From contig JACKQF010000005.1 in assembly GCA_024232965.1 (NCBI GenBank), forward strand, positions 249,632-313,631: a DNA stretch of 64,000 nucleotides. The letters are read 5' to 3'. Below are positions 6,868 through 63,927 of the stretch, one piece after another (position 1 is the stretch's first letter; every line of letters begins with the position of its first letter). The DNA is from Verrucomicrobiaceae bacterium. GTDB lineage: Bacteria > Verrucomicrobiota > Verrucomicrobiia > Verrucomicrobiales > Verrucomicrobiaceae. A model generated the notes under the pieces. That model was given only the letters and a program-made list of their open reading frames with translations, had not been told where the DNA came from and ran no database searches. The translations under genes were made by a program, and so were the position numbers.

Positions 6868-7221
6868 ATGAGCGAAAAGACCATTTTCCAAAAGATCATC
6901 GACCGCGAGATCCCCGCCCCCCTCGTCTATGAGGATGAGTTTTGCGTCGCCTTCAACGACATCTCCCCACAGGCACCGATTCATGTTTTGATCGTCCCAC
7001 GCAAGGTCATCCCTCGGGTCGGAGCAGCAGAACAGGACGATCAGGCAACGCTCGGAGCCCTGCTTTTGGCAGCGGGCGCGGTAGCTCGCAAACTCGGGGT
7101 GGACTCCCGAGAAAAGGGCTTTCGTCTAGCCATCAATAACGGCGTGGACGCAGGTGAGACAGTGCCCCACCTCCATGTGCACCTTTTGGCTGGTCGGCCA
7201 TTGGATTGGCCGCCAGGCTGA
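6868..7221 (+). CDS. HIT-family (histidine triad) nucleotide hydrolase, HinT-like
   Basis: MSEKTIFQKIIDREIPA...HLHVHLL histidine triad. ATG at 6868 follows nrdR by 17 nt. Confidence 0.85.
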   Translation: MSEKTIFQKIIDREIPAPLVYEDEFCVAFNDISPQAPIHVLIVPRKVIPRVGAAEQDDQATLGALLLAAGAVARKLGVDSREKGFRLAINNGVDAGETVPHLHVHLLAGRPLDWPPG

Positions 7222-7223
7222 TA

Positions 7224-8519: not shown

Positions 8520-8747
8520 TCAATTATGTAAATTGATTGTCACGCAAATGATATTTCGGATTTCCTAACGTTTTTTGCGTATTCACTAATAAGAAATCAA
8601 CCCGAGCAATTGACGCGCTTTTCAAAGGCGACGCAAACGAACTGCTGCGATCCCCACCTGGACCTCCCTCTTCCGCAATTTGCGATTTTCTGTGCGAATA
8701 TTGCGTTGAATTGACATCAAATCCACGATTGCCCATGCTCTGAGGGC

Positions 8748-9248
8748 ATGAGCAGTTTCGGTCTCAGACCCAAGTTTACCCATCTCCTCGAACTTGGTGT
8801 CCAAGAAGCCCGCGACAAGATCGTGGAGAAAGTTAAGAGCGACGGTTCACGCTGCGAGGTGAAAAGTTTTCCAGGATTCGTCTGCTTACGGATCCCTGAA
8901 TCTGACCGGCACTATTGGTCTCCTCGTCTGAACCTGAGCCTGGACGCAACTGACGAAGGCCACACGGTGATTCACGGCACCTACGGCCCGAATGCGAATA
9001 TGTGGTCCTCGTTTCTCTACGGTTACCTCCTGGTAGGATCAGTGGGACTATTCTCCGGATTGCTGGGGGCCTGCCAGAATTGTCTGGGTATGACCCCATG
9101 GGGTTTGTGGGTCTTCGGCGCAATGCTGGCGATCGCCATTGGAATGTACCTCATGGCTCAGTTTGGGCAGAAGCTAGCGGCGCAGCAGACCTTTCTGCTG
9201 CACCAGATTTATGAGGCTGCCGTGGGGCAGCACGTGGAGATCCACTAA
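8748..9248 (+). CDS. Hypothetical small membrane protein
   Basis: 166 aa. Two predicted TM helices (FLYGYLLVGSVGLFSGLLGA, WGLWVFGAMLAIAIGMYLMA). Divergent from the TPR gene across an AT-rich intergenic region. Confidence 0.4.
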   Translation: MSSFGLRPKFTHLLELGVQEARDKIVEKVKSDGSRCEVKSFPGFVCLRIPESDRHYWSPRLNLSLDATDEGHTVIHGTYGPNANMWSSFLYGYLLVGSVGLFSGLLGACQNCLGMTPWGLWVFGAMLAIAIGMYLMAQFGQKLAAQQTFLLHQIYEAAVGQHVEIH

Positions 9249-9253
9249 ACAGA

Positions 9254-10535: not shown

Positions 10536-13442
10536 TCAGTGCGTGAAGTAAAACTCCTTGGAGTTGAGCAGAGCCCAGAAAAGATCCTCTAGAACCGTCT
10601 GCCGCTGGTCGGGGGACTCGGCAAGAGATGCCTGCACCGCCTTCCACTCTTGATCGTTTGGCTGGCGGCCAAAGGCACGCAGGAAAAGATCCTCGGCGAT
10701 CTCGCGATCTGATTTCTTCTCACTGATGAGACGGGCGACAACGCGTCCTTGCTTGATGCGGTCATTAACAGCGTCACCGTTCATGAGGTGGAGGGCCTGG
10801 GAAAGGGTGGGCTCCATCTTCACTTCGCAAGAGCAGACGGACTCGCGCTTAGCGCGGCCGAAGGTAGTTAGGAAGTAGTTGGAAACGGCACCATCGGCGA
10901 TCTGCACGGCACGCGCGCCGAGCGGCAGCCCCTGGAACTTGTTCGGAGTCTCGGTGATTTGGGAGACAGCGTCCAACAGCACCTCGGCACGCACGCGGCG
11001 GACTTGGGCATGAGAGAAGTTGCGCTTGTCCCCAGCGTTGGTCTCATTGACTTGGGATGAGCGCTGATACGTCATGGAGGTGCAGATATCCCGCACCATC
11101 TTGCGCATGTCGTATTTGTACTCAGTCAGGCGTTTCGCCAACTCTTCGATGAGTTCTGGGTTTGACGGCGGATTGGAGATGCGGACATCATCCACTGGTT
11201 CAACGATCCCCGTGCCGAAGAAGTGTGCCCACATGATGTTGGCGATATTCCGGGCGAAGTAAGGGTTCTTGGGGGAGGCAATCCACTCAGCGAGCACCTT
11301 GCGACGGTCTTCACCGGGCTTAATTTCTGGCGATTCACCACCGAGGAACTTGGGTTTCATAACGGCCTTCGTCAGAAAGTGACGAGCATCCCCGCCCTTG
11401 CTGTTGTAGACGATGACTTCTTGTGGATCATCCGTCGCCTTGCGGCCGATTTGGGTAAAGAAAGCCTGGAAGCTGTAGTAGTCATCCATGGTCCAGCGGT
11501 CAAACGGATGGTTGTGACACTGGGCACACTGGATGCGCATTCCCATGAAGACCTGGGCGATGTTTTCGGTGACCTTGAGAGGATCAAGCTCCATCTGGTA
11601 GTAGTTCACCGCTGGATTTGACACGGTGCCACCTGTCGCAGACAGAAGCTCGATGACGATCTCGTTCAGTGGGACGTTCTTTGCCACACGCTCTGACAAC
11701 CAGTTGTAATACAGCAGCGCATTTTTGTAGAATGGCGGCCGGTTGTTGTTCAGACCGGAGCGAATCTGTAGCAACTCTGCCCATTTCATCACCCATAAAT
11801 CGGTGAACTCTTTGCGATCCAGCAGGCTATCGACCAAAGCCTCACGCTTCTTGGGATTGGCATCCGCCAAGAATGCACGGGTGTCTTCCGCCTTTGGATA
11901 AACGCCGAGCACGTCGATGAACGTGCGGCGAATGAACTCCTGATCGCTACAAACACCTGAGGGAAGGATGCGAAGTTTGTGCAGCTTTTCATCGACAAGC
12001 GTGTCAATGTAATTGGTCTCGGCCAAGTTGGGCCGCTCGTACTGAAGGTTGGCAGGAATGACCAGTGTCTGTGCGGTGGTGCTATAAACGTCGAAACGAG
12101 CCAGCATGAACGCTGCCCCACGATCCCCGGATGTCACAAGCCCATTCTTATCCACAGAAGCGACGGGGTCGTTATTGGACATGAACAATGCCAGCGATGT
12201 CACATCACGATCGGTGCCATCGGAGTAAGTCGCGCGGACGGTGATCTGCTGATTCGCCCCCGCGCCTTCGAGCACCATCTGTTTGGGGAAGATCTCAATG
12301 CCGGTGACCTTGGCGGTATCAGGCTTGTCGTCAGGAGTTCCAGCAGTGATCCACTCCAACAGGGTCTTGTTATACTCGCTGTCTTCTTCAAAGCACTGAT
12401 TGCCGGAGTGGGGCACGGCACCAATGGCCTTTTCGACCAAGCAACTCTCTTCAGGGATCGCCAAGTTGATGCGGCGGCCAGGCATCTCACGTGTGATGCG
12501 GATGAAGTCGCCAGCGGGGTCCATCCCAAAAAGGGAGAGGCGGAATCCGTCCTTACCACGGGCCGCGCCGTGGCAGCCACCTTGGTTACAACCACCACGC
12601 ATGAACACAGGCATCACGTCCAGCCGGAAGGAGATCTGACGCTCCTTCGTGCCATCGGCGATCAAAACCGGAGCCTTTGCAGACATCCCACCCAGGGATG
12701 CAGAAATTTCTGTCGCGCCCTTTTCGATCACGGGACGGAGGGTCACTCCGTCCAGCTTCGCGATTTTGGGATCAGCCACACTGAGGTTAGAGAAGCGAGT
12801 CACGTCGCGTGTGGTAGCATCTTTGAAAGTTGCCATGACTACGACTTGGTGAAAATCTCGCTTGGTCTCCAAAGCGAAGCGATCGGGGAAGATCTCGATG
12901 CGCTGGAGCTGTGGCAGTTTTTTCTGGAGCTCGGCCATCGCCTTGACCTCTTCAGGACTACGATAACGCATCGTCAAGCCTTCAGGAATCTTCGCGCCTT
13001 CCGCGACCCAGCGCTTAAGGTTAGCAATTTCCGCCGGCGTCAGGGGATCACCCTTGGGCGGCATGATGTCGTCGTGACCTTTTGGCAAAAGCACGCGCTT
13101 CACAATTTCGGACTCGTCTGGCTTTCCAGGAACAAGGGCAGCACCGGCTTCACCGCCTTTGATCATGGCCGCAAGATCTGTCATCAGGAGATCTCCCTTT
13201 GTCTTGGATGGGTTGTGACACTCCAAGCACTTGGTTTCCAAGACATGCTGAACCTGACTGCCAAAATCGAGCGCTGCTACGACTGGAACTGGAGCCGGTG
13301 CTGGCTTTACAGCAGGCGCCGATGCTGGTTTTGCGGCAGGTGCAGCAGGAGCCGGTGACGGAGTCGGCACTGGCGCGGTTGCAGCCACTGCAAGGGAACA
13401 GAGGCTAAGAGACCATGCAATGATCGTCGCGGAGGTTTTCAT
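10536..13442 (-). CDS. PSD1-type protein: planctomycete cytochrome c (PSCyt1/PSCyt2), Big_2, DUF1549 and DUF1553 domains
   Basis: Signal peptide MKTSATIIAWSLSLCSLAVA. CLECHNPSKTKGDL (PSCyt1), CNQGGCHGAARGKDGFRLSLFG (PSCyt2), DQEFIRRTFIDVLGVYP (DUF1549), RIQCAQCHNHPFDRW (DUF1553). Confidence 0.85.
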   Translation of the reverse strand: MKTSATIIAWSLSLCSLAVAATAPVPTPSPAPAAPAAKPASAPAVKPAPAPVPVVAALDFGSQVQHVLETKCLECHNPSKTKGDLLMTDLAAMIKGGEAGAALVPGKPDESEIVKRVLLPKGHDDIMPPKGDPLTPAEIANLKRWVAEGAKIPEGLTMRYRSPEEVKAMAELQKKLPQLQRIEIFPDRFALETKRDFHQVVVMATFKDATTRDVTRFSNLSVADPKIAKLDGVTLRPVIEKGATEISASLGGMSAKAPVLIADGTKERQISFRLDVMPVFMRGGCNQGGCHGAARGKDGFRLSLFGMDPAGDFIRITREMPGRRINLAIPEESCLVEKAIGAVPHSGNQCFEEDSEYNKTLLEWITAGTPDDKPDTAKVTGIEIFPKQMVLEGAGANQQITVRATYSDGTDRDVTSLALFMSNNDPVASVDKNGLVTSGDRGAAFMLARFDVYSTTAQTLVIPANLQYERPNLAETNYIDTLVDEKLHKLRILPSGVCSDQEFIRRTFIDVLGVYPKAEDTRAFLADANPKKREALVDSLLDRKEFTDLWVMKWAELLQIRSGLNNNRPPFYKNALLYYNWLSERVAKNVPLNEIVIELLSATGGTVSNPAVNYYQMELDPLKVTENIAQVFMGMRIQCAQCHNHPFDRWTMDDYYSFQAFFTQIGRKATDDPQEVIVYNSKGGDARHFLTKAVMKPKFLGGESPEIKPGEDRRKVLAEWIASPKNPYFARNIANIMWAHFFGTGIVEPVDDVRISNPPSNPELIEELAKRLTEYKYDMRKMVRDICTSMTYQRSSQVNETNAGDKRNFSHAQVRRVRAEVLLDAVSQITETPNKFQGLPLGARAVQIADGAVSNYFLTTFGRAKRESVCSCEVKMEPTLSQALHLMNGDAVNDRIKQGRVVARLISEKKSDREIAEDLFLRAFGRQPNDQEWKAVQASLAESPDQRQTVLEDLFWALLNSKEFYFTH

Positions 13443-13515
13443 GAGGGGCGTTTTTGGGGGAATTTGGGGCGATGAACTTACGCTGCTAGCGAAGGGCTCT
13501 ATCAAGACGGAGTCA

Positions 13516-18547: not shown

Positions 18548-19441
18548 ATGAACGCCTCCGATCTCAACACGCAGCTTTCCGGCCCACGGCCACCACTCTT
18601 GGTTCACGTCAATACCGAGGAACACTTTGCCGCACGCCGAATCAGCGGGGCCAAGAACGTCTGCGTGTATGAGACAGCCTTTCTCGACAACCTGCAAAAG
18701 CTAGAACCGGAGAAGACCGTAGCCATCATCGTCTATGGCGAAGGTGCCCCGTCGCTGGATTCAGAAGAAGCTGCACACCGATTGATCACCGCTGGCTACA
18801 CCAACGTCACCGATTTCCGAGGTGGCCTCCGCGAGTGGGAACAGGCCGGACTGCCAATCCTCAGCGACACCGAACTACCCCAAACTCCCGTCATTACCGG
18901 ACAGTTCAAAGCAGACACCCAGGGTAGTCTGATCCGCTGGACCGGTCGCAATTTGTTCAACCACCACAGCGGCAGCCTCAAGCTCGCCGCCGGGCACCTC
19001 ACAATTGAAAAGGGGGCCCTCAAAACGGCCTCTTTCATTTTGGATATGAACAGCATCACCTGTGAGGACCTCACCGACTCAGGGTACAACGCCATGCTCA
19101 TCCACCACCTGCGGACCACCGATTTCTTCGATGTGGACCAGTACCCCACGGCAACCTTTGAGGCCACCCGAGCCGACGCAATTGAGGGCAGCACCGACGG
19201 CACCCCTAACTACCAAATTACTGGCGGCTTCAGCCTGCGCGGCATCACTCACGAGATCACTTTCCCAGCCGTCGTGGCGATCGGCGATGCCAAGCACATC
19301 ACTGCCCAGGCTCAAATTGAAATTGACCGCACCCGATGGGGGAGCCGTTATGGTTCAGGTAAATTCTTCGCCTTCCTTGGCAAACACGTCGTCAACGACC
19401 ACATCCAACTGCACCTCAAAATCCACGCGGAACGCGGTTGA
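18548..19441 (+). CDS. Rhodanese-like domain (no catalytic Cys) fused to a YceI-like domain
   Basis: The N-terminal ~100 aa have the rhodanese fold pattern (LLVHVNTEEHFAARRISGAKNV...IIVYGEGAPS...GGLREWEQAGLP) but no active-site cysteine. The C-terminal ~180 aa are YceI-like (FDVDQYPTATFEATRA...ITGGFSLRGITHEITFPA). Confidence 0.55.
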   Translation: MNASDLNTQLSGPRPPLLVHVNTEEHFAARRISGAKNVCVYETAFLDNLQKLEPEKTVAIIVYGEGAPSLDSEEAAHRLITAGYTNVTDFRGGLREWEQAGLPILSDTELPQTPVITGQFKADTQGSLIRWTGRNLFNHHSGSLKLAAGHLTIEKGALKTASFILDMNSITCEDLTDSGYNAMLIHHLRTTDFFDVDQYPTATFEATRADAIEGSTDGTPNYQITGGFSLRGITHEITFPAVVAIGDAKHITAQAQIEIDRTRWGSRYGSGKFFAFLGKHVVNDHIQLHLKIHAERG

Positions 19442-19628
19442 ACGATCACCCGGCGCCTCTTTCTTCTGCCATCCAGCGACGTAATTCCGCGAAAAGATCG
19501 GATTTCCTGTGCGCGAAACATTGACACTCTGCGCCCAATCGCTGTAGTCTCGGGCTTCCCGACTCGAAAAATCCCCGTTCATCCTCCCGAAACCCGCCTC
19601 GGCACGGCCTGGCAGCCTTTCCCTCTCC

Positions 19629-21296
19629 ATGTTTTCCCCAAAAACCGAAGAACTCCTCCTCGAACAACTCCAGGAATCCGGACTCATCACAGAACGCGAC
19701 GTCGCGCATGCCCGAGGAGCCCAAAAAGGGGACGAATCCCTTCTCGAAACCCTGACCAAGACCGGCGTCATTAACGACGAACAAATTGCCCAGACCGTAG
19801 CGGTGAATTCTGGGATGGAATACGTCGATCTCCACGGCTACACAGCCCACCAGGGTCTGAAAGACCTCGTCCCGCTGGAAGTTGCCATGCGCTACAAAGT
19901 CGCCCCACTGGGCGCGGATGGTCCCACTCTGCAACTGGTGGTTTCGGATCCCTACGACTTTGAGACACTGGATGCGCTTCCCCATATTTTACAGCCAGAC
20001 ATCGAGTTCTTCTGCTCCACGCCGAGCTTGATCAAGACCCTCATGGCCAATATTTACGGCAATGAAGCGGTCATGGGCTCTGGCAGCTTCAAAACCGCTG
20101 GCGACAGCGACTCCGGCGATGGCGATGCCCCGGTGATCCGATTGGTCACAAACCTGTTGATGGAGGCCTTCAAAAATCGCGCCTCTGATATTCATATCGA
20201 GCCACTGGAAAAAGACGTCCGCATCCGCTACCGCATCGACGGCGTTCTGCACGACGTTGAGCACCATCCAAAACGCCTTCTGGCCGCCATTATCAGCCGT
20301 ATCAAGATCATGACCGGCACGATGAGCATTGATGAAAAGCGCGTGCCACAGGACGGTCGTATCACCATGTCCTTCAACGACAAGGAACTGGACATGCGCG
20401 TCTCCATCGTCCCCACCAACAATGGTGAGTCGGTCGTCATGCGCGTGCTCGATAAGAGCAGCCTCCGGTTGGGGCTCTCCGACCTGGGCTTCCTCAGCGA
20501 TGACCAATCCCGCTTCGAGCGCCTGCTGACACTGCCAGACGGCATCATTTTGGTCACCGGACCGACAGGTTCCGGCAAAACGACAACCCTTTACGCCTGC
20601 CTCAATTTCATCAACCGTCCCGACCGCAAAATCATCACGGTCGAAGATCCGGTGGAATACGAGCTCGCCGGAATCAACCAGGTGATGGTGAAGGAAGACA
20701 TCGGCATGACCTTTGCCGCCGCGCTCCGCGCCATGCTGCGCCAAGCACCGAACATCATCATGATCGGGGAAATTCGTGATATGGAGACGGCGGGCATCGC
20801 CATCCAGGCATCACTGACAGGTCACTTGGTCTTCAGTACGCTGCACACCAACGATGCCCCCAGCGCCGTCGCCCGTCTCACCGACATTGGGATCAAGCCC
20901 TTCCTCATCGCCTCCGCCGTCCGCGCCATCATGGCCCAGCGATTGGTCCGTAAGCTCTGCGGTGACTGCAAAGCTCCCAGCACCCTGACAGACCGCGAGC
21001 TGCGATCTCTAGGACTAGAGGCATCCCAGATGCTCGGTGCCCACATCATGGGACCACAGGGCTGTAACAAGTGCCGCCAATTCGGGTTCCGAGGTCGTAT
21101 GTGCATCCTTGAAATCTTCGAAATCGACGACGAAGTCCGCAGCATGGTGAACGAAAACCTGACCACACCGCAGCTCCGCCGGCGCGCACGCCAGCTAGGG
21201 ATGCGCACTCTACGCGAAGACGGCATCCGCAAAGTTCTCGCCGGTCTGACCACCGCTGACGAAGTTATCGAGGCCACCATGTCAGACGCAGACTGA
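19629..21296 (+). CDS. gspE: Type II secretion / type IV pilus assembly ATPase, GspE/PilB family (copy 1)
   Basis: 555 aa. N-terminal T2SSE_N-like domains. Walker A GPTGSGKTTTLYA. Asp box, His box (LTGHLVFSTLHTNDA). Tetracysteine CGDC...CNKC. Confidence 0.85.
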   Translation: MFSPKTEELLLEQLQESGLITERDVAHARGAQKGDESLLETLTKTGVINDEQIAQTVAVNSGMEYVDLHGYTAHQGLKDLVPLEVAMRYKVAPLGADGPTLQLVVSDPYDFETLDALPHILQPDIEFFCSTPSLIKTLMANIYGNEAVMGSGSFKTAGDSDSGDGDAPVIRLVTNLLMEAFKNRASDIHIEPLEKDVRIRYRIDGVLHDVEHHPKRLLAAIISRIKIMTGTMSIDEKRVPQDGRITMSFNDKELDMRVSIVPTNNGESVVMRVLDKSSLRLGLSDLGFLSDDQSRFERLLTLPDGIILVTGPTGSGKTTTLYACLNFINRPDRKIITVEDPVEYELAGINQVMVKEDIGMTFAAALRAMLRQAPNIIMIGEIRDMETAGIAIQASLTGHLVFSTLHTNDAPSAVARLTDIGIKPFLIASAVRAIMAQRLVRKLCGDCKAPSTLTDRELRSLGLEASQMLGAHIMGPQGCNKCRQFGFRGRMCILEIFEIDDEVRSMVNENLTTPQLRRRARQLGMRTLREDGIRKVLAGLTTADEVIEATMSDAD

Positions 21297-21359
21297 TCCA
21301 GCGCCCACACTCCCCTTTTCTAACCTTTTCTCAACAGCGCACCCCCTCTCCCTATTGCC

Positions 21360-23018
21360 ATGACAGCTCAAAACGTGGTGGACATGCTCGAAGCTCGCGG
21401 AGTCATCGACAGCGGCCAAGCCTACGACATCGTGCAAGACAACCTCCGCTCCGGCAGAGACGTCCTCCAAATCATTCTGGATTTTGAAATCTTCCAAAAC
21501 GAGGACGAATTCTGGGCCGCCGTAGCAGACGAACTGGGTTGCCAGCACTTCGACCTCTCTACCTTTGAGCCACCCGCTTCCGTCGTCAATCTGATCCCCG
21601 CTGGCATGGGCAGACTCTACGGTGCCTTCCCAATCACCCTGGACGGACAGGGGCTGCACGTCGCCTTCACCGATCCGCTAAACCCGCAGATTGCAGAAGA
21701 TTTGCGTTTCGGTCTGGACAAAGCCATCGTACCAGTCGTCGCACGCAGCAGCCAAGTACAGGCGCTAATCGACAAACACTACGGCACAGGGATGCCGAGT
21801 GTGGAGGAGATCTTTGGTCAGCTAGCCCTTCAGAAACCTGACAATCCAGAGGCAGAGGCAAATTCTGCTCCCATCGTGAAGTTTGTCGATCTGGTTCTCG
21901 CCCAGGCCATCAAAGAAAAGGCTTCCGACATTCACTTCGAACCCTTCGAAAAAGAGTTCAAGATCCGCTATCGTGTCGATGGTGCTCTCTACGAGATGGC
22001 CCCACCACCCATCCACTTGGCCACCTCCGTCATCTCTCGCGTGAAGGTCATGGCCAACATGAACATCGCAGAACGCCGCATCCCACAGGACGGCCGAATC
22101 ATGACCGTGGTGAATGGCAAACCGGTGGACATGCGCGTCAATTCCCTGCCAACCCAGCATGGCGAATCCGTGGTGCTACGTGTGCTTGACCGATCCTCAG
22201 TCAATTTGGACCTCGAGAATCTGGGAATGCCAGGCTTCCTCTTCGATTATATCGTCGAGACGATTCATAAACCCAATGGCATCTTCATCGTCACTGGCCC
22301 CACTGGTGCCGGCAAGACCACCACCCTCTACGCTGCACTCCGACGCATCAATACCATCGATGCCAAGCTCCTCACAGCCGAAGACCCCGTCGAATACGAA
22401 TTGGACGGGGTCATGCAGGTGCCAGTGAATGAGGCAGTCGGCCTGACCTTTGCTAGAGCGCTGCGCGCCTTCCTTCGCCAAGATCCAGACCGCATCATGG
22501 TGGGAGAAATGCGTGACCTTGAGACCGCGCAAATCGCGATCCAGGCCTCACTTACAGGACACTTGGTGCTCAGCACCCTCCACACCAATGATTCCTCTGG
22601 GGCAGTCACGCGTCTTGTAGACATGGGCGTTGAACCATTCCTTGTAGCCGCAACCCTTGAAGGGGTTCTGGCACAACGTTTGCTCCGCACCATTTGCAAA
22701 ACCTGCAAAGCCCCGTATGACCCCAGCCTATCCGTCCTGAACCAGCTTGGCCTCTCCCAGTCGGACCTTGGAGGCAAGCAGTTCTACACGGGCTCCGGCT
22801 GTTCCTCTTGTGCAAACTCAGGCTATAAAGGACGCAAGGGGCTGTACGAACTCCTCAACGTCACCGATCCCATTCGCGATCTGATCACTGAAAAAGCACC
22901 AACTCTCGTTCTCAAACAAAAGGCCATTGAACTGGGAATGGTCACCCTCCGTGACGACGGCCTCCGCAACATCTATGATGGCGAAACCACCGTCGAAGAA
23001 GTTCTCAAATACACCTGA
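21360..23018 (+). CDS. gspE: Type II secretion / type IV pilus assembly ATPase, GspE/PilB family (copy 2, tandem paralog)
   Basis: 552 aa. GPTGAGKTTTLYA. LTGHLVLSTLHTNDS. CKTC...CSSC. N-terminal GspE_N-like domains. Confidence 0.85.
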   Translation: MTAQNVVDMLEARGVIDSGQAYDIVQDNLRSGRDVLQIILDFEIFQNEDEFWAAVADELGCQHFDLSTFEPPASVVNLIPAGMGRLYGAFPITLDGQGLHVAFTDPLNPQIAEDLRFGLDKAIVPVVARSSQVQALIDKHYGTGMPSVEEIFGQLALQKPDNPEAEANSAPIVKFVDLVLAQAIKEKASDIHFEPFEKEFKIRYRVDGALYEMAPPPIHLATSVISRVKVMANMNIAERRIPQDGRIMTVVNGKPVDMRVNSLPTQHGESVVLRVLDRSSVNLDLENLGMPGFLFDYIVETIHKPNGIFIVTGPTGAGKTTTLYAALRRINTIDAKLLTAEDPVEYELDGVMQVPVNEAVGLTFARALRAFLRQDPDRIMVGEMRDLETAQIAIQASLTGHLVLSTLHTNDSSGAVTRLVDMGVEPFLVAATLEGVLAQRLLRTICKTCKAPYDPSLSVLNQLGLSQSDLGGKQFYTGSGCSSCANSGYKGRKGLYELLNVTDPIRDLITEKAPTLVLKQKAIELGMVTLRDDGLRNIYDGETTVEEVLKYT

Positions 23019-23140
23019 ATTTGTGAACTATGTGTTAGAAAACAAATAAGTGATGGACATTCCCGCCCATCTCCCAGTATTCTCGACCCACTAAGTGCTG
23101 ATATTTTCCTCTTTTCACTCATAATCGACAGCAGTCTCTT

Positions 23141-24424
23141 ATGCCCAATTTCCACTACATCGCCCTGGACCAGAACGGACAAGAAATCGCAGGCGTCATT
23201 GACGCAGTCAGCGATGCCGAGGCCATCAACGCCCTGCGCTCCCAGCAACTCTACCCCACCCAGGTCGTCCAAGAAGGCAAGGGCGACACTGCCAGCATCA
23301 AGAAGCGCGCCCGCACGACTACGGCAAAGGCCAAAGGTAAGGCAGCAGTCAAAGCCACTGCTACTGCGAAGGTCAAGGGCAAGACGCTGATGATCTTCAC
23401 ACGCCAGTTGGCAACCTTGATCGATTCCGGACTCCCTCTGCTGCGTGGACTCACCGTTCTCGGTCGTCAGGAGCCACTTCCGGTGATGAAAAGCACCATC
23501 AACACCCTGGCAGACGCCGTCCAGACCGGATCCACTTTCTCCGAGAGTCTCCAGCAATACCCTCGTATCTTCAACAAGCTCTACGTGAACATGGTCAAGG
23601 CTGGTGAGTTGGGCGGTGTGCTCGAAATTGTCCTCAACCGTCTCGCAGAGTACCAGGAAAAGGCGCAAAAGCTGAAGAACAAGGTCGTCGCCGCGATGGT
23701 TTACCCAATCATCGTCATGTTCATCGCCGTCGCGATCATGATCTTTCTCATGCTCGTCATCGTGCCGAAATTTGAAGGCATTTTCAAAGACATGCTTCAG
23801 GGTAAGCCGCTCCCTTGGCTGACTCAGGTCGTCATCGGCATGTCACGTTGGATCGGCGCCAACTTCGTTTACCTCGCCATTGGTGCCTTCGGCATCGTCG
23901 TTGCATGGAAGATTTTTTCCTCCACCAAGGGCGGGCGTGTCGTCATTGATAAAGCTAAGCTACGGATGCCCATCTTTGGCGATGTCCAGCGCAAAACCGC
24001 CATCTCACGATTCACCCGAACGCTTGGCACCCTCGTGACCTCCGGTGTTCCGATTCTTCAAGCACTGAACATCACCCGCGAAACTGCTGGCAACGTTGTC
24101 GTCTCCGACGCCATCAATAAGGTGCACGATGCAGTGAAAGAGGGTGAGTCAATGGTCGCTCCACTCGATGGCAGCGGCGTCTTCCCTCCGATGGTTATCT
24201 CCATGGTGGACGTCGGCGAGGAAACGGGCCAACTACCTGAAATGCTTCTGAAAATCGCAGACGTTTACGAAGACGAAGTGGACAACTCCGTGTCCGCCCT
24301 CACCTCCCTCCTTGAACCATTGATGATCGTCTTCCTAGCCGTCGTCGTTGGTGTCATCGTTATGGCGCTCTTCCTGCCTCTGATCTCCATCATCCAGAAC
24401 CTCAGTTCCGGCTCCGGCGGCTAG
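23141..24424 (+). CDS. gspF: Platform protein GspF/PilC family, with an N-terminal lysine/alanine-rich insertion
   Basis: 427 aa. Two GspF repeats (GLPLLRGLTVL... and GVPILQALNIT...). Three TM segments. K/A-rich insert KKRARTTTAKAKGKAAVKATATAKVKGK at about residues 52-80. Confidence 0.85.
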   Translation: MPNFHYIALDQNGQEIAGVIDAVSDAEAINALRSQQLYPTQVVQEGKGDTASIKKRARTTTAKAKGKAAVKATATAKVKGKTLMIFTRQLATLIDSGLPLLRGLTVLGRQEPLPVMKSTINTLADAVQTGSTFSESLQQYPRIFNKLYVNMVKAGELGGVLEIVLNRLAEYQEKAQKLKNKVVAAMVYPIIVMFIAVAIMIFLMLVIVPKFEGIFKDMLQGKPLPWLTQVVIGMSRWIGANFVYLAIGAFGIVVAWKIFSSTKGGRVVIDKAKLRMPIFGDVQRKTAISRFTRTLGTLVTSGVPILQALNITRETAGNVVVSDAINKVHDAVKEGESMVAPLDGSGVFPPMVISMVDVGEETGQLPEMLLKIADVYEDEVDNSVSALTSLLEPLMIVFLAVVVGVIVMALFLPLISIIQNLSSGSGG

Positions 24425-24450
24425 AATTCTGGTGAACAACTGCCGCAACC

Positions 24451-25104
24451 TTGATGTCCATTCATCGTATGCAAAACACGACCTCCAAAGGCCTCAGACT
24501 CGCACGCAGAGGATTCACTCTGATTGAACTTCTCGTCGTCATTGCCATCATCGCCCTGCTGTCGTCGCTAACTATCGGTGCTTTCTCGTACGCTACCAAA
24601 GCGGCCGCGAGAAATCGCACCGAGGCGACCTTTGCAGCCATCAAACTTGGACTCACCTCTTACTTCTCCGAGTACAAGGAGTATCCAGAACCAGCCCAAC
24701 CGGATCAAACTATATCCATAGGATCAAAGCGTTACACAAGCGGTGGGGCCGCAATGCTCTATCAAGCCATGAGTGGTGATGGCAATAATGCCATCCTCAT
24801 CGGTGCCGGCGAAAGTGGCGAAAGTTCAAATGGCCAATTCACCAAAGAAGAGGCAGCCCGCACCATGATGCGAGACATGCCACCAACCACTTGGAAAAAG
24901 ATTGAGAACACCTACGTGATGGTAGATGGCTTCAACCACCCCTTCCAATATACCCACGGCGGCAATGGGACCAATGACGATGCGGTCAATCCTAGCTCCT
25001 ATGACCTATGGTCTTACGGCGAGGATGAGCAAAACATCAATCAATCCAGTCACGCTGCTAAAATTGATCCCAAAACGAGCGCCAAGTGGATCAAGAACTG
25101 GTGA
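24451..25104 (+). CDS. Pseudopilin / type IV pilin-like protein with a prepilin N-terminal cleavage/methylation domain
   Basis: RRGFTLIELLVVIAIIALLSS matches the G|FTLIE prepilin signature. Small secreted protein. Confidence 0.75.
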   Translation: MMSIHRMQNTTSKGLRLARRGFTLIELLVVIAIIALLSSLTIGAFSYATKAAARNRTEATFAAIKLGLTSYFSEYKEYPEPAQPDQTISIGSKRYTSGGAAMLYQAMSGDGNNAILIGAGESGESSNGQFTKEEAARTMMRDMPPTTWKKIENTYVMVDGFNHPFQYTHGGNGTNDDAVNPSSYDLWSYGEDEQNINQSSHAAKIDPKTSAKWIKNW

Positions 25105-25172: not shown

Positions 25173-26306
25173 ATGCTTGATCGTGCCATCTCTCTCATCC
25201 GCCACCAACGCACCAAGGCGTTCTTGTGGGCAGGAGTTTGTGCGCTGGCACCTTTCCCAAGTTTAGCCGGAGACCCAGTTCTCAGTGATAACTTGGAGGT
25301 CGTCTATCAACTATCCCTCCCACCCTCTGCGATTGCCTGCGCGCCTGATGGCTCGTGGGTCATGGGAGTAAATCCGTCTGAAAAGCCGCGCAACCGCGCC
25401 GTCAAAGTTACCCGCAGCGGCACCGTCATCCCCTTTCCAACCCCCAGCATGAGCGAGGCTATGCCAGGGGAATCCCTGCCACTCGACTCAATCAGCGGCC
25501 TCCAAAGCGATGCAGAAGGGGTCGTCTGGATGGTGGACAACGGCAGGCGCACAGAGACTTCACCAAAAATCATTGCCTGGAACGAAGATAAGCAGCGGCT
25601 CCATTCCGTCTTCAATCTGGCCCCTCCCGCAGTCAGTCCGACATCATTCGTGTCGGACATTGCGGTCGATCCCAATTCCCCCCTCGCTTTCTTGGCGGAT
25701 CCCGCGAGCGGGACCGACGCCGCCATCATTGTTCTGGATCGTGCCACGGGTCTTGCCAGACGCCTTCTTCAGGGCGAAGCCAGCGTCCAGCCTGACACCA
25801 CTATTCCGATTCCCTCAGGCAGCGGCACCTCGGAAACCCGCCGCCTAGACGGTCAGACCGTCATGCCCCAGTGCGGTATCAATGCCCTCTGCCTCGATAA
25901 AAAGAGCGAGTGGCTTTACTTCTGCGCTCGTCAGGCCAATCACATTTACCGCATCCGCACCAGCGTCCTCGGGGATTTGAAGGCAAGCGCTGCGGATGTC
26001 GCCAAGGCGGTAGAGACCTGGGCCTCAAAGCCCTTTTCCTCAAGCATGGCCATCGACACCAAGGGCAACCTCTTCTTAACCGACATCGCGAACCGAGCCA
26101 TCGTCGTCGTCGAACCCGCCCGCCGCAACTTTGTCCCCCTACTCAGCGACCCAAGATTGCTGAACCCTGACGGTCTCTCCTTTGGGAAAGACGGAAAGCT
26201 CTATTTCTTTTCCCCCACTCAATCTCGCAGCCTCCCGCAACCCATGCCGGACGCCTTTTGCCTCTTCCGCGTGCCTGACCTCACCATCCATCGGTCGGGC
26301 GAATAA
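25173..26306 (+). CDS. Secreted hypothetical protein, probable beta-propeller (SMP-30/gluconolactonase/yellow-MRJP-like repeats)
   Basis: Signal peptide. Repeated 'xDIAVDPNS' / 'LFLTDIANRAIVVVEP' / 'LYFFSPT' beta-strand motifs. Family assignment uncertain. Confidence 0.35.
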   Translation: MLDRAISLIRHQRTKAFLWAGVCALAPFPSLAGDPVLSDNLEVVYQLSLPPSAIACAPDGSWVMGVNPSEKPRNRAVKVTRSGTVIPFPTPSMSEAMPGESLPLDSISGLQSDAEGVVWMVDNGRRTETSPKIIAWNEDKQRLHSVFNLAPPAVSPTSFVSDIAVDPNSPLAFLADPASGTDAAIIVLDRATGLARRLLQGEASVQPDTTIPIPSGSGTSETRRLDGQTVMPQCGINALCLDKKSEWLYFCARQANHIYRIRTSVLGDLKASAADVAKAVETWASKPFSSSMAIDTKGNLFLTDIANRAIVVVEPARRNFVPLLSDPRLLNPDGLSFGKDGKLYFFSPTQSRSLPQPMPDAFCLFRVPDLTIHRSGE

Positions 26307-26378
26307 AACTTTCCCATTTTTCCCCTTGAGAATTCCCCGCTGTGGAGGATTATCACGGCCCCTGGTTTTCCAAGATTT

Positions 26379-26463
26379 GCTCGCGTGGCGGAATTGGTAG
26401 ACGCGCTAGATTCAGGTTCTAGTGAGTAACATCGTGGAGGTTCGAGTCCTCTCGCGAGCACCA
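26379..26463 (+). tRNA. tRNA-Leu (anticodon CAG), type II with a long variable arm
   Basis: Cloverleaf read by hand. Acceptor GCTCGCG/CGCGAGC. D-arm GGAATTGGTAGAC. Anticodon stem CTAGA/TCTAG with loop TTCAGGT. Long variable arm. T-arm GGAGGTTCGAGTCCTCT. Encoded CCA. Confidence 0.85.
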
Positions 26464-26505
26464 TCAACTGATGGACGGAGAACAGGTCGTGATATCGATT
26501 ACTGC

Positions 26506-27180
26506 ATGCAGGACGCCCGATTTGTTCGCAACGCCTTTGCAGGCATCGCCAAACGTTACGTATTGGCCAATCACGTTCTCAGCCTCGGCATCGATGTCCT
26601 GTGGCGTAAAACCACTGCACGACTCGCCGCTGAGCGTCACCCACAACTGATTGTCGACCTCGCTACCGGCAGCGGCGATCTCGCCCAAAGCCTCCAGGCG
26701 GCGAATCCACAAGCTCGCATCCTCGGTGGCGACTTTTCCGTTCCCATGATGCGGGAAGCCCAAGTTCGCGGCTTCCCCCAACTCATCGCGGCAGATGCGA
26801 TGCAGCTGCCCATCATCGATGCCGCAGCGGACCTCGTCACCGTTGCCTTTGGACTACGCAACATGGCCTCCTGGCCCTCCGCCTTGCAGGAAATGAGCCG
26901 CATCCTCAAACCCGGTGGGCAACTGATGGTCCTAGATTTTTCCATCCCACGCTTCCCAGGCATTCGACAGGCCTATCTCTTCTACTTGAAGCAAATCATG
27001 CCGCGCATCGCAGGTGCCATCACTGGTCAACGCGAGGCCTATGAATATCTCTGCGGCTCCATCGAACGCTTTCCGTCAGGGTCCGCCATGCTTGACCTCA
27101 TTCAGGCCAACGGCTTCCGCTCTGCAACCTGCCGACCGCTGACCTTTGGCATCGCCTCCCTCTACATTGCGGAGAAGTGA
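26506..27180 (+). CDS. ubiE: Ubiquinone/menaquinone biosynthesis C-methyltransferase UbiE/MenG
   Basis: FAGIAKRYVLANHVLSLGIDVLWR...VDLATGSGDLA (SAM motif I)...LKPGGQLMVLDFS. The long ORF from 26422 overlaps the tRNA, so the internal Met at 26506 was chosen. Confidence 0.8.
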   Translation: MQDARFVRNAFAGIAKRYVLANHVLSLGIDVLWRKTTARLAAERHPQLIVDLATGSGDLAQSLQAANPQARILGGDFSVPMMREAQVRGFPQLIAADAMQLPIIDAAADLVTVAFGLRNMASWPSALQEMSRILKPGGQLMVLDFSIPRFPGIRQAYLFYLKQIMPRIAGAITGQREAYEYLCGSIERFPSGSAMLDLIQANGFRSATCRPLTFGIASLYIAEK

Positions 27181-27198: not shown

Positions 27199-27273
27199 TG
27201 GTGGCAGAGGGGAGAATCGAACTCCCGACCAAGGGCTTATGAGTCCCCTGCTCTACCGCTGAGCTACCCTGCC
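27199..27273 (-). tRNA. tRNA with CAT anticodon (Met, or Ile2-like lysidine tRNA)
   Basis: Reverse complement GGCAGGGTAGCTCAGCGGTAGAGCAGGGGACTCATAAGCCCTTGGTCGGGAGTTCGATTCTCCCCTCTGCCACCA. Anticodon loop CTCATAA. Strongly resembles the E. coli tRNA-Ile2 anticodon arm (GGCGACTCATAATCGCT). Confidence 0.75.
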
Positions 27274-28064: not shown

Positions 28065-28139
28065 GGTGGCTCGGGACGGAATCGAACCGCCGACACGGGG
28101 ATTTTCAATCCCCTGCTCTACCGACTGAGCTACCGAGCC
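28065..28139 (-). tRNA. tRNA-Phe (anticodon GAA)
   Basis: Reverse complement GGCTCGGTAGCTCAGTCGGTAGAGCAGGGGATTGAAAATCCCCGTGTCGGCGGTTCGATTCCGTCCCGAGCCACC. Anticodon loop TTGAAAA. Only 'CC' of the CCA is encoded, followed by T. Confidence 0.85.
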
Positions 28140-30232: not shown

Positions 30233-30937
30233 ATGAATGAAGTCCTTCATGAGGCCCTAGCCATGCACAACCTCCCGGTCACGGTGCTTCTGGGGATCAT
30301 CCTCCTCTATTGGCTCATGGTGCTAGTAGGCGCGCTGGATAGTGATATGGACACCGTCGATATCCACGCAGATACCGATGTCCATCTCGACGCAGATGCA
30401 CACGTCGACGGCCATGCTGACGTTCATTCGGACAACGTGCTGGGTGGGCTTTTCATGCGTGCTGGACGGTTCCTCCGCCTCGGTCAGGTACCCCTCATGC
30501 TCGTCATGAGTATCCTCGCTATCTTCATGTGGCCCATCTCCATGCTGGGAAACTACTACCTGAATGGCACCGCTGACCACCGCAGCACCGGTTTTGCCTT
30601 GCTAATGCTTTTGCCAAATTTCATCGTTAGCGCCCTCGCTACCCGCATGGTCACCGCACCGATCGCTGCGGCTCTGAAAAAACTGTCCATCGAGACAGAC
30701 GCCAATTTGCCCATCGTCGGCAGGCACGGCCGCGTCCAGTCGTTCCAGGTAGATCAGACCTATGGGCAAATCGAAATCCCCACGGATGGAGCCCCCCTTC
30801 TTGTCAATGCACGCACCCTCGATGGTGCAGCCCCTTTGCCCAAAGGCACCCGCGTCATCGTCCTGGAGGCCACTGAAGGCCACCATTACCTCATCCGGGC
30901 ATTGCGCCCCGAGGAGCAAACCACTCTCACTCTTTAA
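30233..30937 (+). CDS. NfeD/YqiJ-like membrane protein with a C-terminal OB-fold and a His/Asp-rich low-complexity segment
   Basis: TM helices (VTVLLGIILLYWLMVLVGA, LMLVMSILAIFMWPI, FALLMLLPNFIVSALA). C-terminal beta-barrel pattern GRHGRVQSF...GQIEIPTDGAPLLVNART...GTRVIVLEATEGHHYLIRAL. Sits immediately upstream of a flotillin gene. Confidence 0.55.
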   Translation: MNEVLHEALAMHNLPVTVLLGIILLYWLMVLVGALDSDMDTVDIHADTDVHLDADAHVDGHADVHSDNVLGGLFMRAGRFLRLGQVPLMLVMSILAIFMWPISMLGNYYLNGTADHRSTGFALLMLLPNFIVSALATRMVTAPIAAALKKLSIETDANLPIVGRHGRVQSFQVDQTYGQIEIPTDGAPLLVNARTLDGAAPLPKGTRVIVLEATEGHHYLIRALRPEEQTTLTL

Positions 30938-30955
30938 CCCAACACCCCCTACCCT

Positions 30956-33046
30956 ATGAATGAGTTATCTACCGTCACCGACTCCTTTTTGTCGAACACC
31001 GTTATGGTCACCGGCACCAGCGTTGTGGTCGTCGTCTTCGGCACCATCATCGCCTTTTCTCGCTTCTATCGAAAGGTCCAGCAGGGCCAGGCGATCGTCC
31101 GCAATGGCGTCGGCGATACGCGCGTCAATTTCAACGGCCTCATGGTCTTCCCAGTCATCCATCAGGCGGAGTACATGGACCTCTCCGTCAAACGCATCGA
31201 GGTAGAGCGCCAAGGCTCCGAAGGCCTGATCTGCAAAGACAACATCCGCGCAGACATCAAGGTCGCTTTCTTCGTTCGCGTCAATAAGAGCGAAGAAGAC
31301 GTCAAGCGCGTCGCACAAACCATCGGCTGCCAGCGCGCCTCCAGCGTTGACACCATCCGCACCCTCTTTGACGCCAAATTCTCTGAGGCACTCAAGACCG
31401 TCGGCAAGCGCTTTGACTTCGTTCAACTCTACAATGAGCGCGATCATTTCAAAGACGAGATCCTCAAAGTCATCGGCACAGATTTGAATGGCTTCACCCT
31501 CGACGACTGCGCCATCGACTTCCTTGAACAGACCGCCATCGAGCACCTCGATCCCGACAACATCCTCGATGCAGAAGGCATCAAAAAGATCACCGAACTC
31601 ACTGCGACGCAGGCAAAACTCGCCAACCAAATTCAGCGCGATAAAGAAAAGGTCATCAAGCAGCAAGACGTCCAGACTCGCGAGGCCGTCCTCGAACTCG
31701 AACGCCAACTCGCTGAAACCGAAGCCAAACAGCACCGCGATGTCCAGTCCGTCAAAGCACGCGAGATGGCGGAAATGATGAAGGTGCAAGAAGAAGAGCG
31801 TCTCAAAGCAGAGCGCGCCAAGATCGCAGCCGACGAAGAGATCGCCATCGCCACCGAAAACAAAGACCGCCAAATCCTCGTCGCTCAGCGCAACAAGGAA
31901 CGAACCGACGCTGTTGAAATCGAGCGCGTCACCCGTGATCGCGACCTCGAAATCATCGATCGCGAACGCATCACCACGCTCAAGTCCATCGAGAAAGAGA
32001 AGTCCGTGGAAGTGGAGCGCAAGAACATCCAGGAAGTCATCAAGGAGCGCGTCGCCCTTGAAAAGACCGTCGTTGTCGAACAACAAAAGATCAAAGACAC
32101 CGAAGCCTTCGCCACCGCAGATCGCGAAAAACAAGTCGCCCTGACCAACGCAGAGAAAGCGGCGCAGGAGCAACTCATCCAAAAAATCAAAGAAGCGGAA
32201 GCCGCCAAGGAAGCCGCACAACTCGCCGCAGAACAGGCCGCATTTACTCACATCCGGGCCGCAGAAGCCTCAAAACAGGCCGCAGAAATGCAAGCTCAAG
32301 AATTGCTCACGCTCGCGGAAGCCCGCCAAGAGGCCTCCACCAAAGACGCCACCGCGACGAAGGCCTTGGCCGAAGCCGAAGCCGCACGCTCCGCCGCCAT
32401 CGGGCTTGGCGAGGCCCAAGTCCTCATGGCCAAAGCCGAGGCTTCGCAGAAGCAAGGCCAGATCGATGCAGAAGTCGCGCAGCTCAAACTCGCGGCGGAA
32501 GCCGACGGCATTACCAAGAAGGCAGAGGCGATGAAACTCCTCGAAAACGCCGGACGCGAGCACGAAGAATTCAAGCTCCAACTCGACAAGCAGAAGGCTG
32601 TCGAACTCGCCCAGATCAGCATTCAGAAAGATATTGCCGCCGCTCAGGCCGGGGTGCTAGGCGAAGCGATGAAGTCCGCCAAGATCGAAATCGTTGGGGG
32701 CGAGAGCCAGTTCTTTGACAAGATCACCAACGCCATCGGCAACGGTCGCGCCCTTGACCGCATGGTCGAAGGCAGCCGCACACTCACCGATGTGAAGGAG
32801 ACCTTTTTCAATGGAGACCCCGACTACTTCAAAGCCCAAGTGCGCCAGCTCGTCGATCAGTTCGGCGTCACCAGCGATGATCTCAAGAACGTCACGGTCG
32901 CCGCGCTCCTGGGCAAACTTGTCGGACTGAATCCTGACTCCGGCACACTGAGCAAGCTCACCAGCATGATCGGTGCTGCCAGTCGCTTCGGCTTTGCCGA
33001 TCAATCCGCTGGCAACCTCCTGGCCGCAAAGAGCGCAAAGAAGTAA
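30956..33046 (+). CDS. Flotillin / SPFH (band 7) family protein, YqiK-like, with a long Ala/Glu/Lys-rich coiled-coil
   Basis: N-terminal TM (VMVTGTSVVVVVFGTIIAFS). SPFH core (QAIVRNGVGDTRVNFNGLMVFPVIHQAEYMDLSVKRIEVER...ICKDNIRADIKVAFFVRV). About 250 aa of EA/KA-rich heptads. 696 aa. Confidence 0.8.
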   Translation: MNELSTVTDSFLSNTVMVTGTSVVVVVFGTIIAFSRFYRKVQQGQAIVRNGVGDTRVNFNGLMVFPVIHQAEYMDLSVKRIEVERQGSEGLICKDNIRADIKVAFFVRVNKSEEDVKRVAQTIGCQRASSVDTIRTLFDAKFSEALKTVGKRFDFVQLYNERDHFKDEILKVIGTDLNGFTLDDCAIDFLEQTAIEHLDPDNILDAEGIKKITELTATQAKLANQIQRDKEKVIKQQDVQTREAVLELERQLAETEAKQHRDVQSVKAREMAEMMKVQEEERLKAERAKIAADEEIAIATENKDRQILVAQRNKERTDAVEIERVTRDRDLEIIDRERITTLKSIEKEKSVEVERKNIQEVIKERVALEKTVVVEQQKIKDTEAFATADREKQVALTNAEKAAQEQLIQKIKEAEAAKEAAQLAAEQAAFTHIRAAEASKQAAEMQAQELLTLAEARQEASTKDATATKALAEAEAARSAAIGLGEAQVLMAKAEASQKQGQIDAEVAQLKLAAEADGITKKAEAMKLLENAGREHEEFKLQLDKQKAVELAQISIQKDIAAAQAGVLGEAMKSAKIEIVGGESQFFDKITNAIGNGRALDRMVEGSRTLTDVKETFFNGDPDYFKAQVRQLVDQFGVTSDDLKNVTVAALLGKLVGLNPDSGTLSKLTSMIGAASRFGFADQSAGNLLAAKSAKK

Positions 33047-33079
33047 GCAGGGAACGCCGATACCCCATCGGCAATCGCT

Positions 33080-63195: not shown

Positions 63196-63927
63196 TCACT
63201 GGTCTGGACGATAGACCCGAGACTTGGCCGTGTACGGATCGATCTGAATGCAGTAAAAATTCTTCAAATCGCCACTTCCCCCGGCTTCCCTTGCATCGGC
63301 CACAGTGAAGTAGCTCTCTGGGAGATTCGGCGGCACCACACCAGCTTCCACAGAACCGCCATTTGCAGCAGTTTTGGGCGTTTTGACACTCCCGTCGGGG
63401 TAAAAGCGGATCGCGGAATAATCCGCATCTGCCCGTGTAAAGAGGTTCTGCCCCTCTTTGAACTGCGACTGCAAAAGAGGCGAGTACTGCTTATTCTTCA
63501 TCACGACGATTCCCGAGTCCATTACAACAGGGTCGGCGACCGCTTCAACCTGAGCATAATCTGTATTTGAACCCGTAGACAAGGTGCGCTGCCCTACCTT
63601 TCCCAGCCGAACCACTTGGTAAGCATGATAGTTCTGTTCAACATCAGCGTTTCTACTTCCGCCGTTTTCTTCCCATGTATAAAAACGCAGTTCGACGGGC
63701 AGGTTGCTGGCAATTGCCTCTTGTTGCGCCATGTTCACGGCATTGACAATCGCGTCACCGGTGGAGGTCATTTGCGTCGAGCGGATCACCCCAATAAACG
63801 CTGGCGTTACGATCGCTATCATCATCGCCATGATGGCCAGCACCACCAACATCTCAATCAGCGTGAATCCTCTGCGGAAAGCGCCAACTGCGCGCTCCTG
63901 AATTGGCGTCTCTGTGATTAGTCTCAT
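63196..63927 (-). CDS. Pseudopilin / type IV pilin-like protein (second copy in the window)
   Basis: FRRGFTLIEMLVVLAIMAMMIAIV prepilin signature. Same unusual 'RRG|FTLIE' leader as the 24451 gene. Confidence 0.7.
   Translation of the reverse strand: MRLITETPIQERAVGAFRRGFTLIEMLVVLAIMAMMIAIVTPAFIGVIRSTQMTSTGDAIVNAVNMAQQEAIASNLPVELRFYTWEENGGSRNADVEQNYHAYQVVRLGKVGQRTLSTGSNTDYAQVEAVADPVVMDSGIVVMKNKQYSPLLQSQFKEGQNLFTRADADYSAIRFYPDGSVKTPKTAANGGSVEAGVVPPNLPESYFTVADAREAGGSGDLKNFYCIQIDPYTAKSRVYRPDQ

Follow-up and report, generated by a model that had tools for sequence, protein, structure and literature searches.

Why would a bacterium keep two assembly-type ATPases beside a single inner-membrane platform? 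The question is raised by four same-strand genes at 19629-25104 of a 64-kb stretch of a Verrucomicrobiaceae bacterium contig (the window, within which coordinates are positions), separated by spacers of 63, 122 and about 27 bp. Two adjacent PilB/GspE-class ATPase genes, here called E1 and E2, are followed by one platform gene and one prepilin gene, as a preliminary description of this DNA had reported. A survey of relatives showed that E1 and E2 belong to two separate ATPase clades found across the PVC superphylum (here Verrucomicrobiota, Kiritimatiellae, Lentisphaeria and Planctomycetota). We consider it slightly better than an even bet (a probability of roughly 0.55) that the two are non-redundant extension motors working on one PilC platform, with the envelope parts encoded elsewhere. 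The four genes and the signature of E1 are as follows (aa, amino acids).

19629..21296, + strand: E1, PilB/GspE-class extension ATPase of the PVC 'E1' subfamily, 555 aa
20745..20753, + strand: E1 signature Ala-Pro-Asn (residues 373-375), where a near-universal Asp-Pro-Asp is expected
21360..23018, + strand: E2, PilB/GspE-class extension ATPase of the PVC 'E2' subfamily, 552 aa
23141..24424, + strand: platform, PilC/GspF inner-membrane protein, 427 aa
24454..25104 (alternative start 24451), + strand: prepilin with a class III signal, 216-217 aa

The two ATPases, the platform and the prepilins

Both ATPases had the full GspE/PilB architecture that the preliminary description had ascribed to them. 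Pfam detected T2SSE and MshEN (PF05157, the former GspE_N) in E1 (2.8e-138; 9.6e-15, 54.8 bits) and in E2 (2.4e-137; 4.9e-18, 65.3 bits), and the two proteins shared 43% identity across 510 aa. Walker A (GPTGSGKT / GPTGAGKT), the Asp box (EDPVEYEL), the Walker B strand with the catalytic Glu (GEIRD / GEMRD), the His box (TGHLVxSTLHTND), the arginine fingers and the tetracysteine zinc motif of two CxxC pairs were present in both. In E1 these include residues 311-318 (Walker A), 381 (catalytic Glu) and the cysteines 444, 447, 479 and 482, which have equivalents in E2. Each catalytic motif and the arginine fingers were conserved in at least 90% of sequences in both the E1 clade and the E2 clade. 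By these motifs E1 and E2 are intact assembly-type GspE/PilB-class ATPases. Their ratios of non-synonymous to synonymous substitution rates (dN/dS) against the related locus L004 were 0.026 for E1 and 0.015 for E2, with 0.019 for the platform; dS was saturated, so the values are rough, and they are clearly far below 1. Both copies are thus under strong purifying selection, and neither is a pseudogene or has lost catalytic residues.

When E1 and E2 were compared with solved structures, full-length PilB and PilF ranked first, followed by Vibrio GspE, with PilT far behind. The best matches of E1 were PilF and PilB (near 1e-130) and that of E2 was Geobacter PilB (9.5e-142). E1 and E2 scored 596.8 and 590.0 bits against the NCBIfam PilB model (TIGR02538, cutoff 675.65 bits) and 580.9 and 589.5 bits against GspE (TIGR02533, cutoff 630.25 bits), below the cutoff in each case; the PVC relatives were also below the cutoff of TIGR02538, at 606-630 bits. 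Neither ATPase is a PilT/PilU, and the preliminary description had likewise judged that neither looks like a PilT; they had scores of 182.3 and 175.6 bits against TIGR01420 (cutoff 319.1). TfpB was rejected as well (NF053534, 462 and 434.8 bits against a cutoff of 850).

The MshEN motif for cyclic di-GMP is reportedly (work of Wang and colleagues, 2016) an N-terminal tandem of 24-residue units, RLGxx(L/V/I)(L/V/I)xxG...LxxxLxxQ. A regular-expression scan found no RLG core in E1 or E2, which rules them out as MshE-type cyclic di-GMP-binding ATPases, and the motif was found in 0/25 Verrucomicrobiota-type E1 and 0/20 E2 sequences. Some Planctomycetota copies and Geobacter PilB did have it. PADLOC defence-system models gave nothing meaningful for E1 or E2. 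Orthologues of E1 in Prosthecobacter and other Verrucomicrobiaceae were 75-95% identical, and E2 was 84% identical to its orthologue in locus L002. Annotations routinely label genes of the two types 'PilB' or 'GspE/PulE family', and even 'TadA'.

The platform matched Pfam T2SSF twice (1.3e-66) and scored 396 bits against the NCBIfam PilC model (Thermus type) and 393.7 bits against GspF (cutoff 424); platform and pilin were both below the PilC, GspF and GspG equivalog cutoffs. A single platform gene was found in the window and per related locus. The operon prepilin carried an N_methyl domain (5.8e-08) and a class III signal (RRG/FTLIELLVV, the stroke marking the cut), and the gene call in locus L001 begins at an ATG matching 24454. 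Its C-terminal domain is weakly GspG-like: the T2SSG score of 18.8 bits was under the cutoff of 21, with 23.6 and 28.2 bits for the L002 and L006 orthologues. The protein evolves fast (82% identity to L004, 48% to L002), a pace that we would expect of an exposed subunit, and it is probably the major filament subunit. The second pseudopilin reported next to guaB is real: the protein encoded there carried N_methyl (8.4e-08) and a GspH domain (23.5 bits, cutoff 21). It resembled the operon pilin in the N-terminal helix only, and is a possible additional substrate of the machine.

Conservation and phylogeny of the ATPase pair

Relatives were collected at one genome per species, which gave 80 loci, and their open reading frames (ORFs) were called and scored against E1, E2 and the platform. 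Gene order was counted in the 44 PVC-type loci with enough flanking DNA, where F is the platform and T a short ATPase of about 370 aa. T was a genuine PilT/PilU in 5/5 loci checked (TIGR01420, 445-454 bits against 319).

E1-T-E2-F: 29/44 loci
E1-E2-F: 7/44 loci (this window, L002, L004, L006, L019, L021 and L023)
E1-T-E2: 2/44 loci
E1-E2: 1/44 loci
E1-E2-T: 1/44 loci
E1 with or without T, E2 and platform not nearby: 4/44 loci (L033, L041, L048 and L049)

The usual PVC order was therefore an E1-like gene, PilT, an E2-like gene, the platform and then several prepilin genes; the downstream genes tested past the platform encoded large N_methyl prepilins. In the lineage of the window the operon had no pilT and one pilin gene, and this E1-E2-platform-pilin block was met again in metagenome contigs and in a Verrucomicrobiaceae chromosome of 6.17 Mb. 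The gene upstream of E1 differed among L002, L004 and L005, so that the conserved unit begins at E1. All-against-all BLAST clustering of the ORFs of 57 PVC loci found no other widely conserved neighbours. The upstream genes in Opitutaceae were coaE and rho.

Several loci showed features of their own. In L004, a 95%-identical relative, genes for a TraG/TrwB-like coupling protein and a large serine recombinase (5056-9893) abut E1 on its upstream side, which suggests a mobile element inserted beside the operon. A Verrucomicrobiota metagenome-assembled genome (MAG), L029, carried an extra T2SSE ATPase of 685 aa (2206-4263; about 195 bits to E1 and to E2) at 5.7 kb upstream of an E1-T-E2-F operon. 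The order E1-E2-PilT was that of a Lentisphaerales MAG (L026, 9986-14490), and a Verrucomicrobiia MAG (L008, 9992-14515) had E1-PilT-E2 followed by 8 kb of DNA with no platform gene.

A neighbour-joining tree was built from 138 sequences and 554 columns, with E. coli GspE and HofB, Geobacter and Myxococcus PilB and Thermus PilF as references (the last three copied from alignments). All first-position PVC ATPases fell in one clade (179/200 bootstraps) and all second-position PVC ATPases in another (191/200), and E. coli GspE and HofB were outside both. The E1/E2 split is old, since the two clades were sisters in 16/200 replicates only. In an enlarged core-only tree, to which 159 core sequences from an exhaustive search of representatives were added, the 57 locus-derived E1 sequences stayed together in 83/100 replicates, apart from E2, the references and PilT, and the E2 sequences in 94/100. 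The enlarged E1 clade of 77 members was poorly supported (5/100 bootstraps) because borderline QAPD sequences shifted in and out of it. From these trees the E1/E2 duplication is placed at or before the common ancestor of Planctomycetota and Verrucomicrobiota, and is not a local event; instead of simple or lineage-specific duplicates, the genes represent two ancient paralogue families across PVC.

Five loci whose records are titled Agathobacter rectalis (L017), Anaerolineales (L027), Hyphomicrobiaceae (L035), Chitinophagaceae (L048) and Chitinophaga (L053) had E1 and E2 sequences nested in the PVC clades, and are probably mis-binned or contaminant contigs.

The two clades also differed at one short motif. 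Just ahead of the Walker B strand, 55/57 E1-clade sequences had LRQAPN, and 41/43 E2-clade sequences, the E2 of the window among them, had the canonical LRQDPD at the same site. DPD was found in all five named references (PilB, PilF, GspE, HofB), in PilT-like ATPases and in most other relatives. When representatives were sampled separately, 17 QAPN sequences grouped with the E1 clade. The PilB structure paper that was searched does not discuss the role of the DPD motif. Two MAGs not labelled as PVC ('bacterium', L050, 1336-7368; UBP18, L038, 9965-16138) had ATPase-PilT-(ATPase)-platform operons in which the first ATPase carries QAPN, yet in the neighbour-joining tree the ATPases of these two loci clustered together, apart from the E1 and E2 clades.

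Pairs of PilB modules were also found joined in one protein. Chains of about 1,000 aa with two GspE/PilB modules are widespread in Patescibacteria (Moranbacteria, Parcubacteria; the P0241 family), where they are annotated 'GspE/PulE family protein'. One module has QDPD and the second often has QNPN, QNPD or QDPN. The likeness to the PVC pair is that of two PilB-type modules of which one is canonical and the other has an altered motif, resembling the QAPN of E1; the differences are that the modules are covalently joined and that the second has no N-terminal domain of its own. The fused modules formed their own clade (90/100 bootstraps), and so reflect an independent internal duplication in Patescibacteria. 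By this tree, paired PilB modules with one altered at the DPD motif have evolved at least twice. A Rosetta-stone argument from the fusions for binding between E1 and E2 was downgraded to an analogy on the same ground. The fused gene of L088 (8001-11033) adjoins neither PilC nor PilT. One further chain, P0242 (1,047 aa), had a GspF-like N-terminal segment, a module that has lost the Walker A lysine (GSGTT) and a second module with QAPN.

System class and division of labour between E1 and E2

By its sequences the system is a PVC-specific variant of the type IVa pilus/type II secretion system (T2SS) branch of type IV filament systems, and belongs to neither classical family. It seems closer to a type IVa pilus than to a classical T2SS because PilT was part of the ancestral operon; its T2SS flavour comes from the GspG-like and GspH-like pilin domains. 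From the type IVa pilus set, the operon holds a PilB-class ATPase, PilC and a prepilin with a class III signal. The initial assignment to a T2SS/type IV pilus-like cluster thus kept its second half, with PilT in the 29/44 loci of the usual order. A classical T2SS was ruled out by equivalog scores below cutoff, by the lack of Gsp partners in the window and in the PVC loci and by PilT in the relatives.

Comparison with known systems gave the same picture. Canonical type IVa pilus loci of the pilB-pilT-pilC type (Myxococcus xanthus; Actinomycetota loci L069, L070, L078, L081 and L084) share the order of ATPase, PilT, platform and pilins, the MshEN N-domain, the tetracysteine ATPases and the class III pilin signal. 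In contrast to them, PVC operons carry E2 between PilT and PilC, and the operon of the window has no pilT. The classical T2SS (E. coli gspC-O, L086) has a similar order of GspE-like, GspF-like and GspG-like genes and a GspH-like pseudopilin, and as in the window there is no PilT. However, GspC, D, L, M, O and I-K were absent from the window and from the surroundings of the PVC loci, relatives have PilT, and E. coli GspE branches outside both ATPase clades. PilT and PilU, like E1 and E2, are adjacent paralogous hexameric ATPases that share work on one pilus machine, but they are retraction motors of about 350 aa without MshEN or zinc domains, whereas E1 and E2 are of the extension type.

The remaining parts of such a machine were looked for in the window with Pfam, applied to about 45 larger ORFs picked as likely genes from the 85 of at least 150 aa, and with phmmer, using E. 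coli GspC, D, I, J, K, L, M and O as queries against all ORFs of at least 60 aa. These searches turned up no secretin, prepilin peptidase or GspC/I/J/K/L/M in the 64 kb, from which PilT was absent too. With E. coli Gsp queries there was also no secretin, prepilin peptidase, GspC, GspL or GspM within 10 kb of any PVC locus; the same phmmer searches returned GspD and GspK matches in non-PVC T2SS-like loci. Among the best 120 homologues of a Verrucomicrobiia PilT none was named Prosthecobacter or Verrucomicrobiaceae, a weak negative. The PilQ secretin of Akkermansia (Amuc_1098), more abundant there than any other outer-membrane protein, has a separately located gene, and PilQ homologues have been reported in Verrucomicrobium, Haloferula and Lentisphaera (PMC4960237). 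The most simple explanation for the envelope parts outside the operon would be dispersed genes, the usual layout of type IV pili. The 'incomplete component set' of the preliminary description therefore holds for the cluster, where the secretin, the prepilin peptidase and GspC/L/M are indeed missing, and fits that layout.

Two motors on one platform are unusual against model organisms, as had been remarked for this cluster, but they are not without precedent. The type IVa pilus of Acinetobacter baylyi also uses two distinct full-length PilB-class ATPases with one PilC platform: PilB and TfpB are both required for efficient extension and are not interchangeable (Ellison et al. 2021, PMC8213720). 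This one studied exception was reported as a surprise, and TfpB was suggested as a possible initiator of extension with PilB as the possible elongator (PMC8213720; PMC11656802). The putative PVC motors differ in being adjacent, superphylum-wide and, in E1, marked by APN. The precedent is a functional analogy only, because E1 and E2 are not TfpB orthologues. No account of a dual-PilB operon shared across PVC turned up in the literature searched. The principal survey of how type IV filaments evolved does not mention Planctomycetes, Verrucomicrobia or PVC, and the duplications that it gives are PilB/PilT and PilT/PilU only (Denise et al. 2019).

If E1 and E2 are two non-redundant extension motors, the four genes would be transcribed together, and each ATPase would form hexamers that engage the same PilC platform. 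Their roles would differ, for example as initiation versus processive extension or by serving different pilin sets. Together they would polymerise prepilins processed by the peptidase, and the filament would leave the cell through a PilQ-type secretin, with secretin and peptidase encoded elsewhere in the genome. Some points weigh against this model. The genetic coupling of E1, E2 and platform is not absolute, since in 4/44 loci E1, whether accompanied by PilT or not, lies away from both E2 and the platform, and L008 has no platform gene 3' of E2. E1 has specifically lost two acidic residues beside Walker B, and could for that reason be something other than an ordinary motor. Finally, the backbone of the neighbour-joining tree is unresolved, so that descent from PilB or from GspE cannot be assigned to either paralogue.

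The alternative that survives best divides the pair between two filaments. E1 with PilT would build a retractile pilus, and E2 with the platform and the GspG/GspH-like prepilins a T2SS-like pseudopilus, the two sharing an operon and possibly the platform. In relatives E1 does adjoin PilT, and E2 the platform and the prepilins; in some genomes E1, alone or together with PilT, is encoded apart from E2 and the platform. E1 also favoured the PilB model over GspE (629 against 603 bits in L011, 606 against 564 in L032), where E2 scored about equally, and the operon pilin is GspG-like and the unlinked one has a GspH domain. The idea is unlikely all the same. There is one platform gene per locus, the secretin and GspC, GspL and GspM that a T2SS-like machine would bring are not within 10 kb of any PVC locus, E2 groups neither with E. 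coli GspE nor with the secretin-linked T2SS-like loci, and the lineage of the window retained E1 after pilT had gone from the operon.

A second alternative makes E1 and E2 an obligate two-gene enzyme, a mixed hexamer or double ring in which the variant E1 alternates with the canonical E2. The two genes are adjacent or near-adjacent in 40/44 loci, and one partner has a fixed APN change beside Walker B where the other is canonical. A review raises PilB-TfpB hetero-oligomers as a possibility (PMC11656802). The single-chain double-PilB proteins of Patescibacteria imply that two such modules can work in one complex, but they stem from an independent duplication and offer an analogy, not homology. 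E1 and E2 also keep all catalytic and arginine-finger residues, as expected of self-sufficient homohexamers, and E1 is encoded away from E2 in a few genomes. To our knowledge all solved PilB and GspE hexamers are homomeric. On balance we regard a mixed ring as rather improbable.

It is quite improbable that E1 has ceased to be a motor and serves as a sensor or regulatory paralogue, such as a nucleotide-binding switch controlling E2 or a stand-in for PilT in lineages that lack pilT. The clade-specific replacement of DPD and the retention of E1 after pilT had left the operon several times would fit such a role, and Myxococcus PilB is reported to act as a signalling protein (PMC5544727). Against it, at least 90% of E1-clade sequences keep the catalytic motifs (Walker A, Asp box, catalytic Glu, His box) and the two arginine fingers, most PVC genomes have PilT alongside E1, which is therefore no general substitute for it, and the canonical cyclic di-GMP motif was missing from all Verrucomicrobiota-type E1 and E2 sequences scanned. 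A recent tandem duplication, with redundant copies or one decaying pseudogene, would suit two adjacent genes of similar length but is practically excluded by the 43% identity, the separate PVC-wide clades, the intact full-length motifs and the low dN/dS.

If, as in the model of two non-redundant motors, a whole superphylum that includes Akkermansia, Planctomycetes and many environmental Verrucomicrobia pairs two distinct assembly motors with a single platform gene, extension by two motors is a design in wide use, and having two of them may be normal in PVC rather than an oddity. The difference between APN and DPD offers a defined sequence feature for probing how the motors divide labour. The pairing also accounts for 'incomplete T2SS' clusters with a duplicated gspE in annotations of PVC phyla. 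A broader and speculative proposal, which we hold to be possible though doubtful, is that PVC filaments are assembled by an obligate pair of canonical E2 and APN-variant E1, either joined in a mixed or stacked ring or with one initiating and the other elongating on a single PilC platform, and that Patescibacteria arrived at the design independently. If this were true, extension motors built of two modules would be a recurring design of type IV filament machines that has gone unrecognised until now. Going by the literature searched, what appears to be new here is the PVC-wide pairing of E1 and E2; the genes themselves are already routinely annotated.

Genomic neighbourhood

The surroundings of the operon in the window comprise the following features that bear on its expression or on its possible substrates.

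19442..19628, + strand: upstream intergenic region, a 187-bp gap after a rhodanese-YceI gene (18548-19441)
25173..26306, + strand: MRJP-like beta-propeller protein (Pfam MRJP, 2.5e-09), N-terminus signal-peptide-like
61652-63112, - strand: guaB
63196..63927, - strand: GspH-like minor prepilin, unlinked, beside guaB (N_methyl and GspH domain)

The gap ahead of E1 contains TTGACA at about 19521 and is the probable promoter region of the operon. The promoter and terminator scan gave weak consensus matches only, and sigma-70 rules may not hold in this phylum. From E1 to the pilin the scan showed no strong terminator on the coding strand. A terminator-like hairpin (26339-26359) follows the MRJP-like gene, and a tRNA-Leu gene (26379-26463) comes after it. 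The MRJP-like gene is possibly co-transcribed with the pilus operon. It was found 3' of the pilin in L001 and L004 and not in L002, and is outside the conserved core.

In the region, Rfam returned three downstream tRNAs and no other structured RNA: tRNA-Leu(CAG) at 26379-26463 (+), tRNA-Met at 27199-27273 (-) and tRNA-Phe at 28065-28139 (-). The first of these overlaps the 5' end of the longest ORF for a UbiE-type methyltransferase (26422-27180, +), and the true start codon of the methyltransferase therefore lies further downstream.

A three-gene cluster at 30233-38062 (+) encodes proteins of 234, 696 and 1,660 aa. The largest carries DUF3686, DUF7902 and AAA, the other two had no Pfam match, and the sole PADLOC match of the cluster was a faint LmuB-like one. 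The genes for the 234-aa and 696-aa proteins are also near the pilus operon of L004, where the locus stops inside the 696-aa gene. PSCyt/PSD1 (DUF1549/DUF1553) proteins, of a kind typical of Planctomycetes and Verrucomicrobia, are encoded at 10536-13505 (-) and 39072-41408 (-), one of them with a Planctomycete cytochrome c domain, in keeping with a PVC origin. The stretch from 44.9 to 63.1 kb holds the S10-spc ribosomal protein cluster together with fusA, secY, guaA and guaB.

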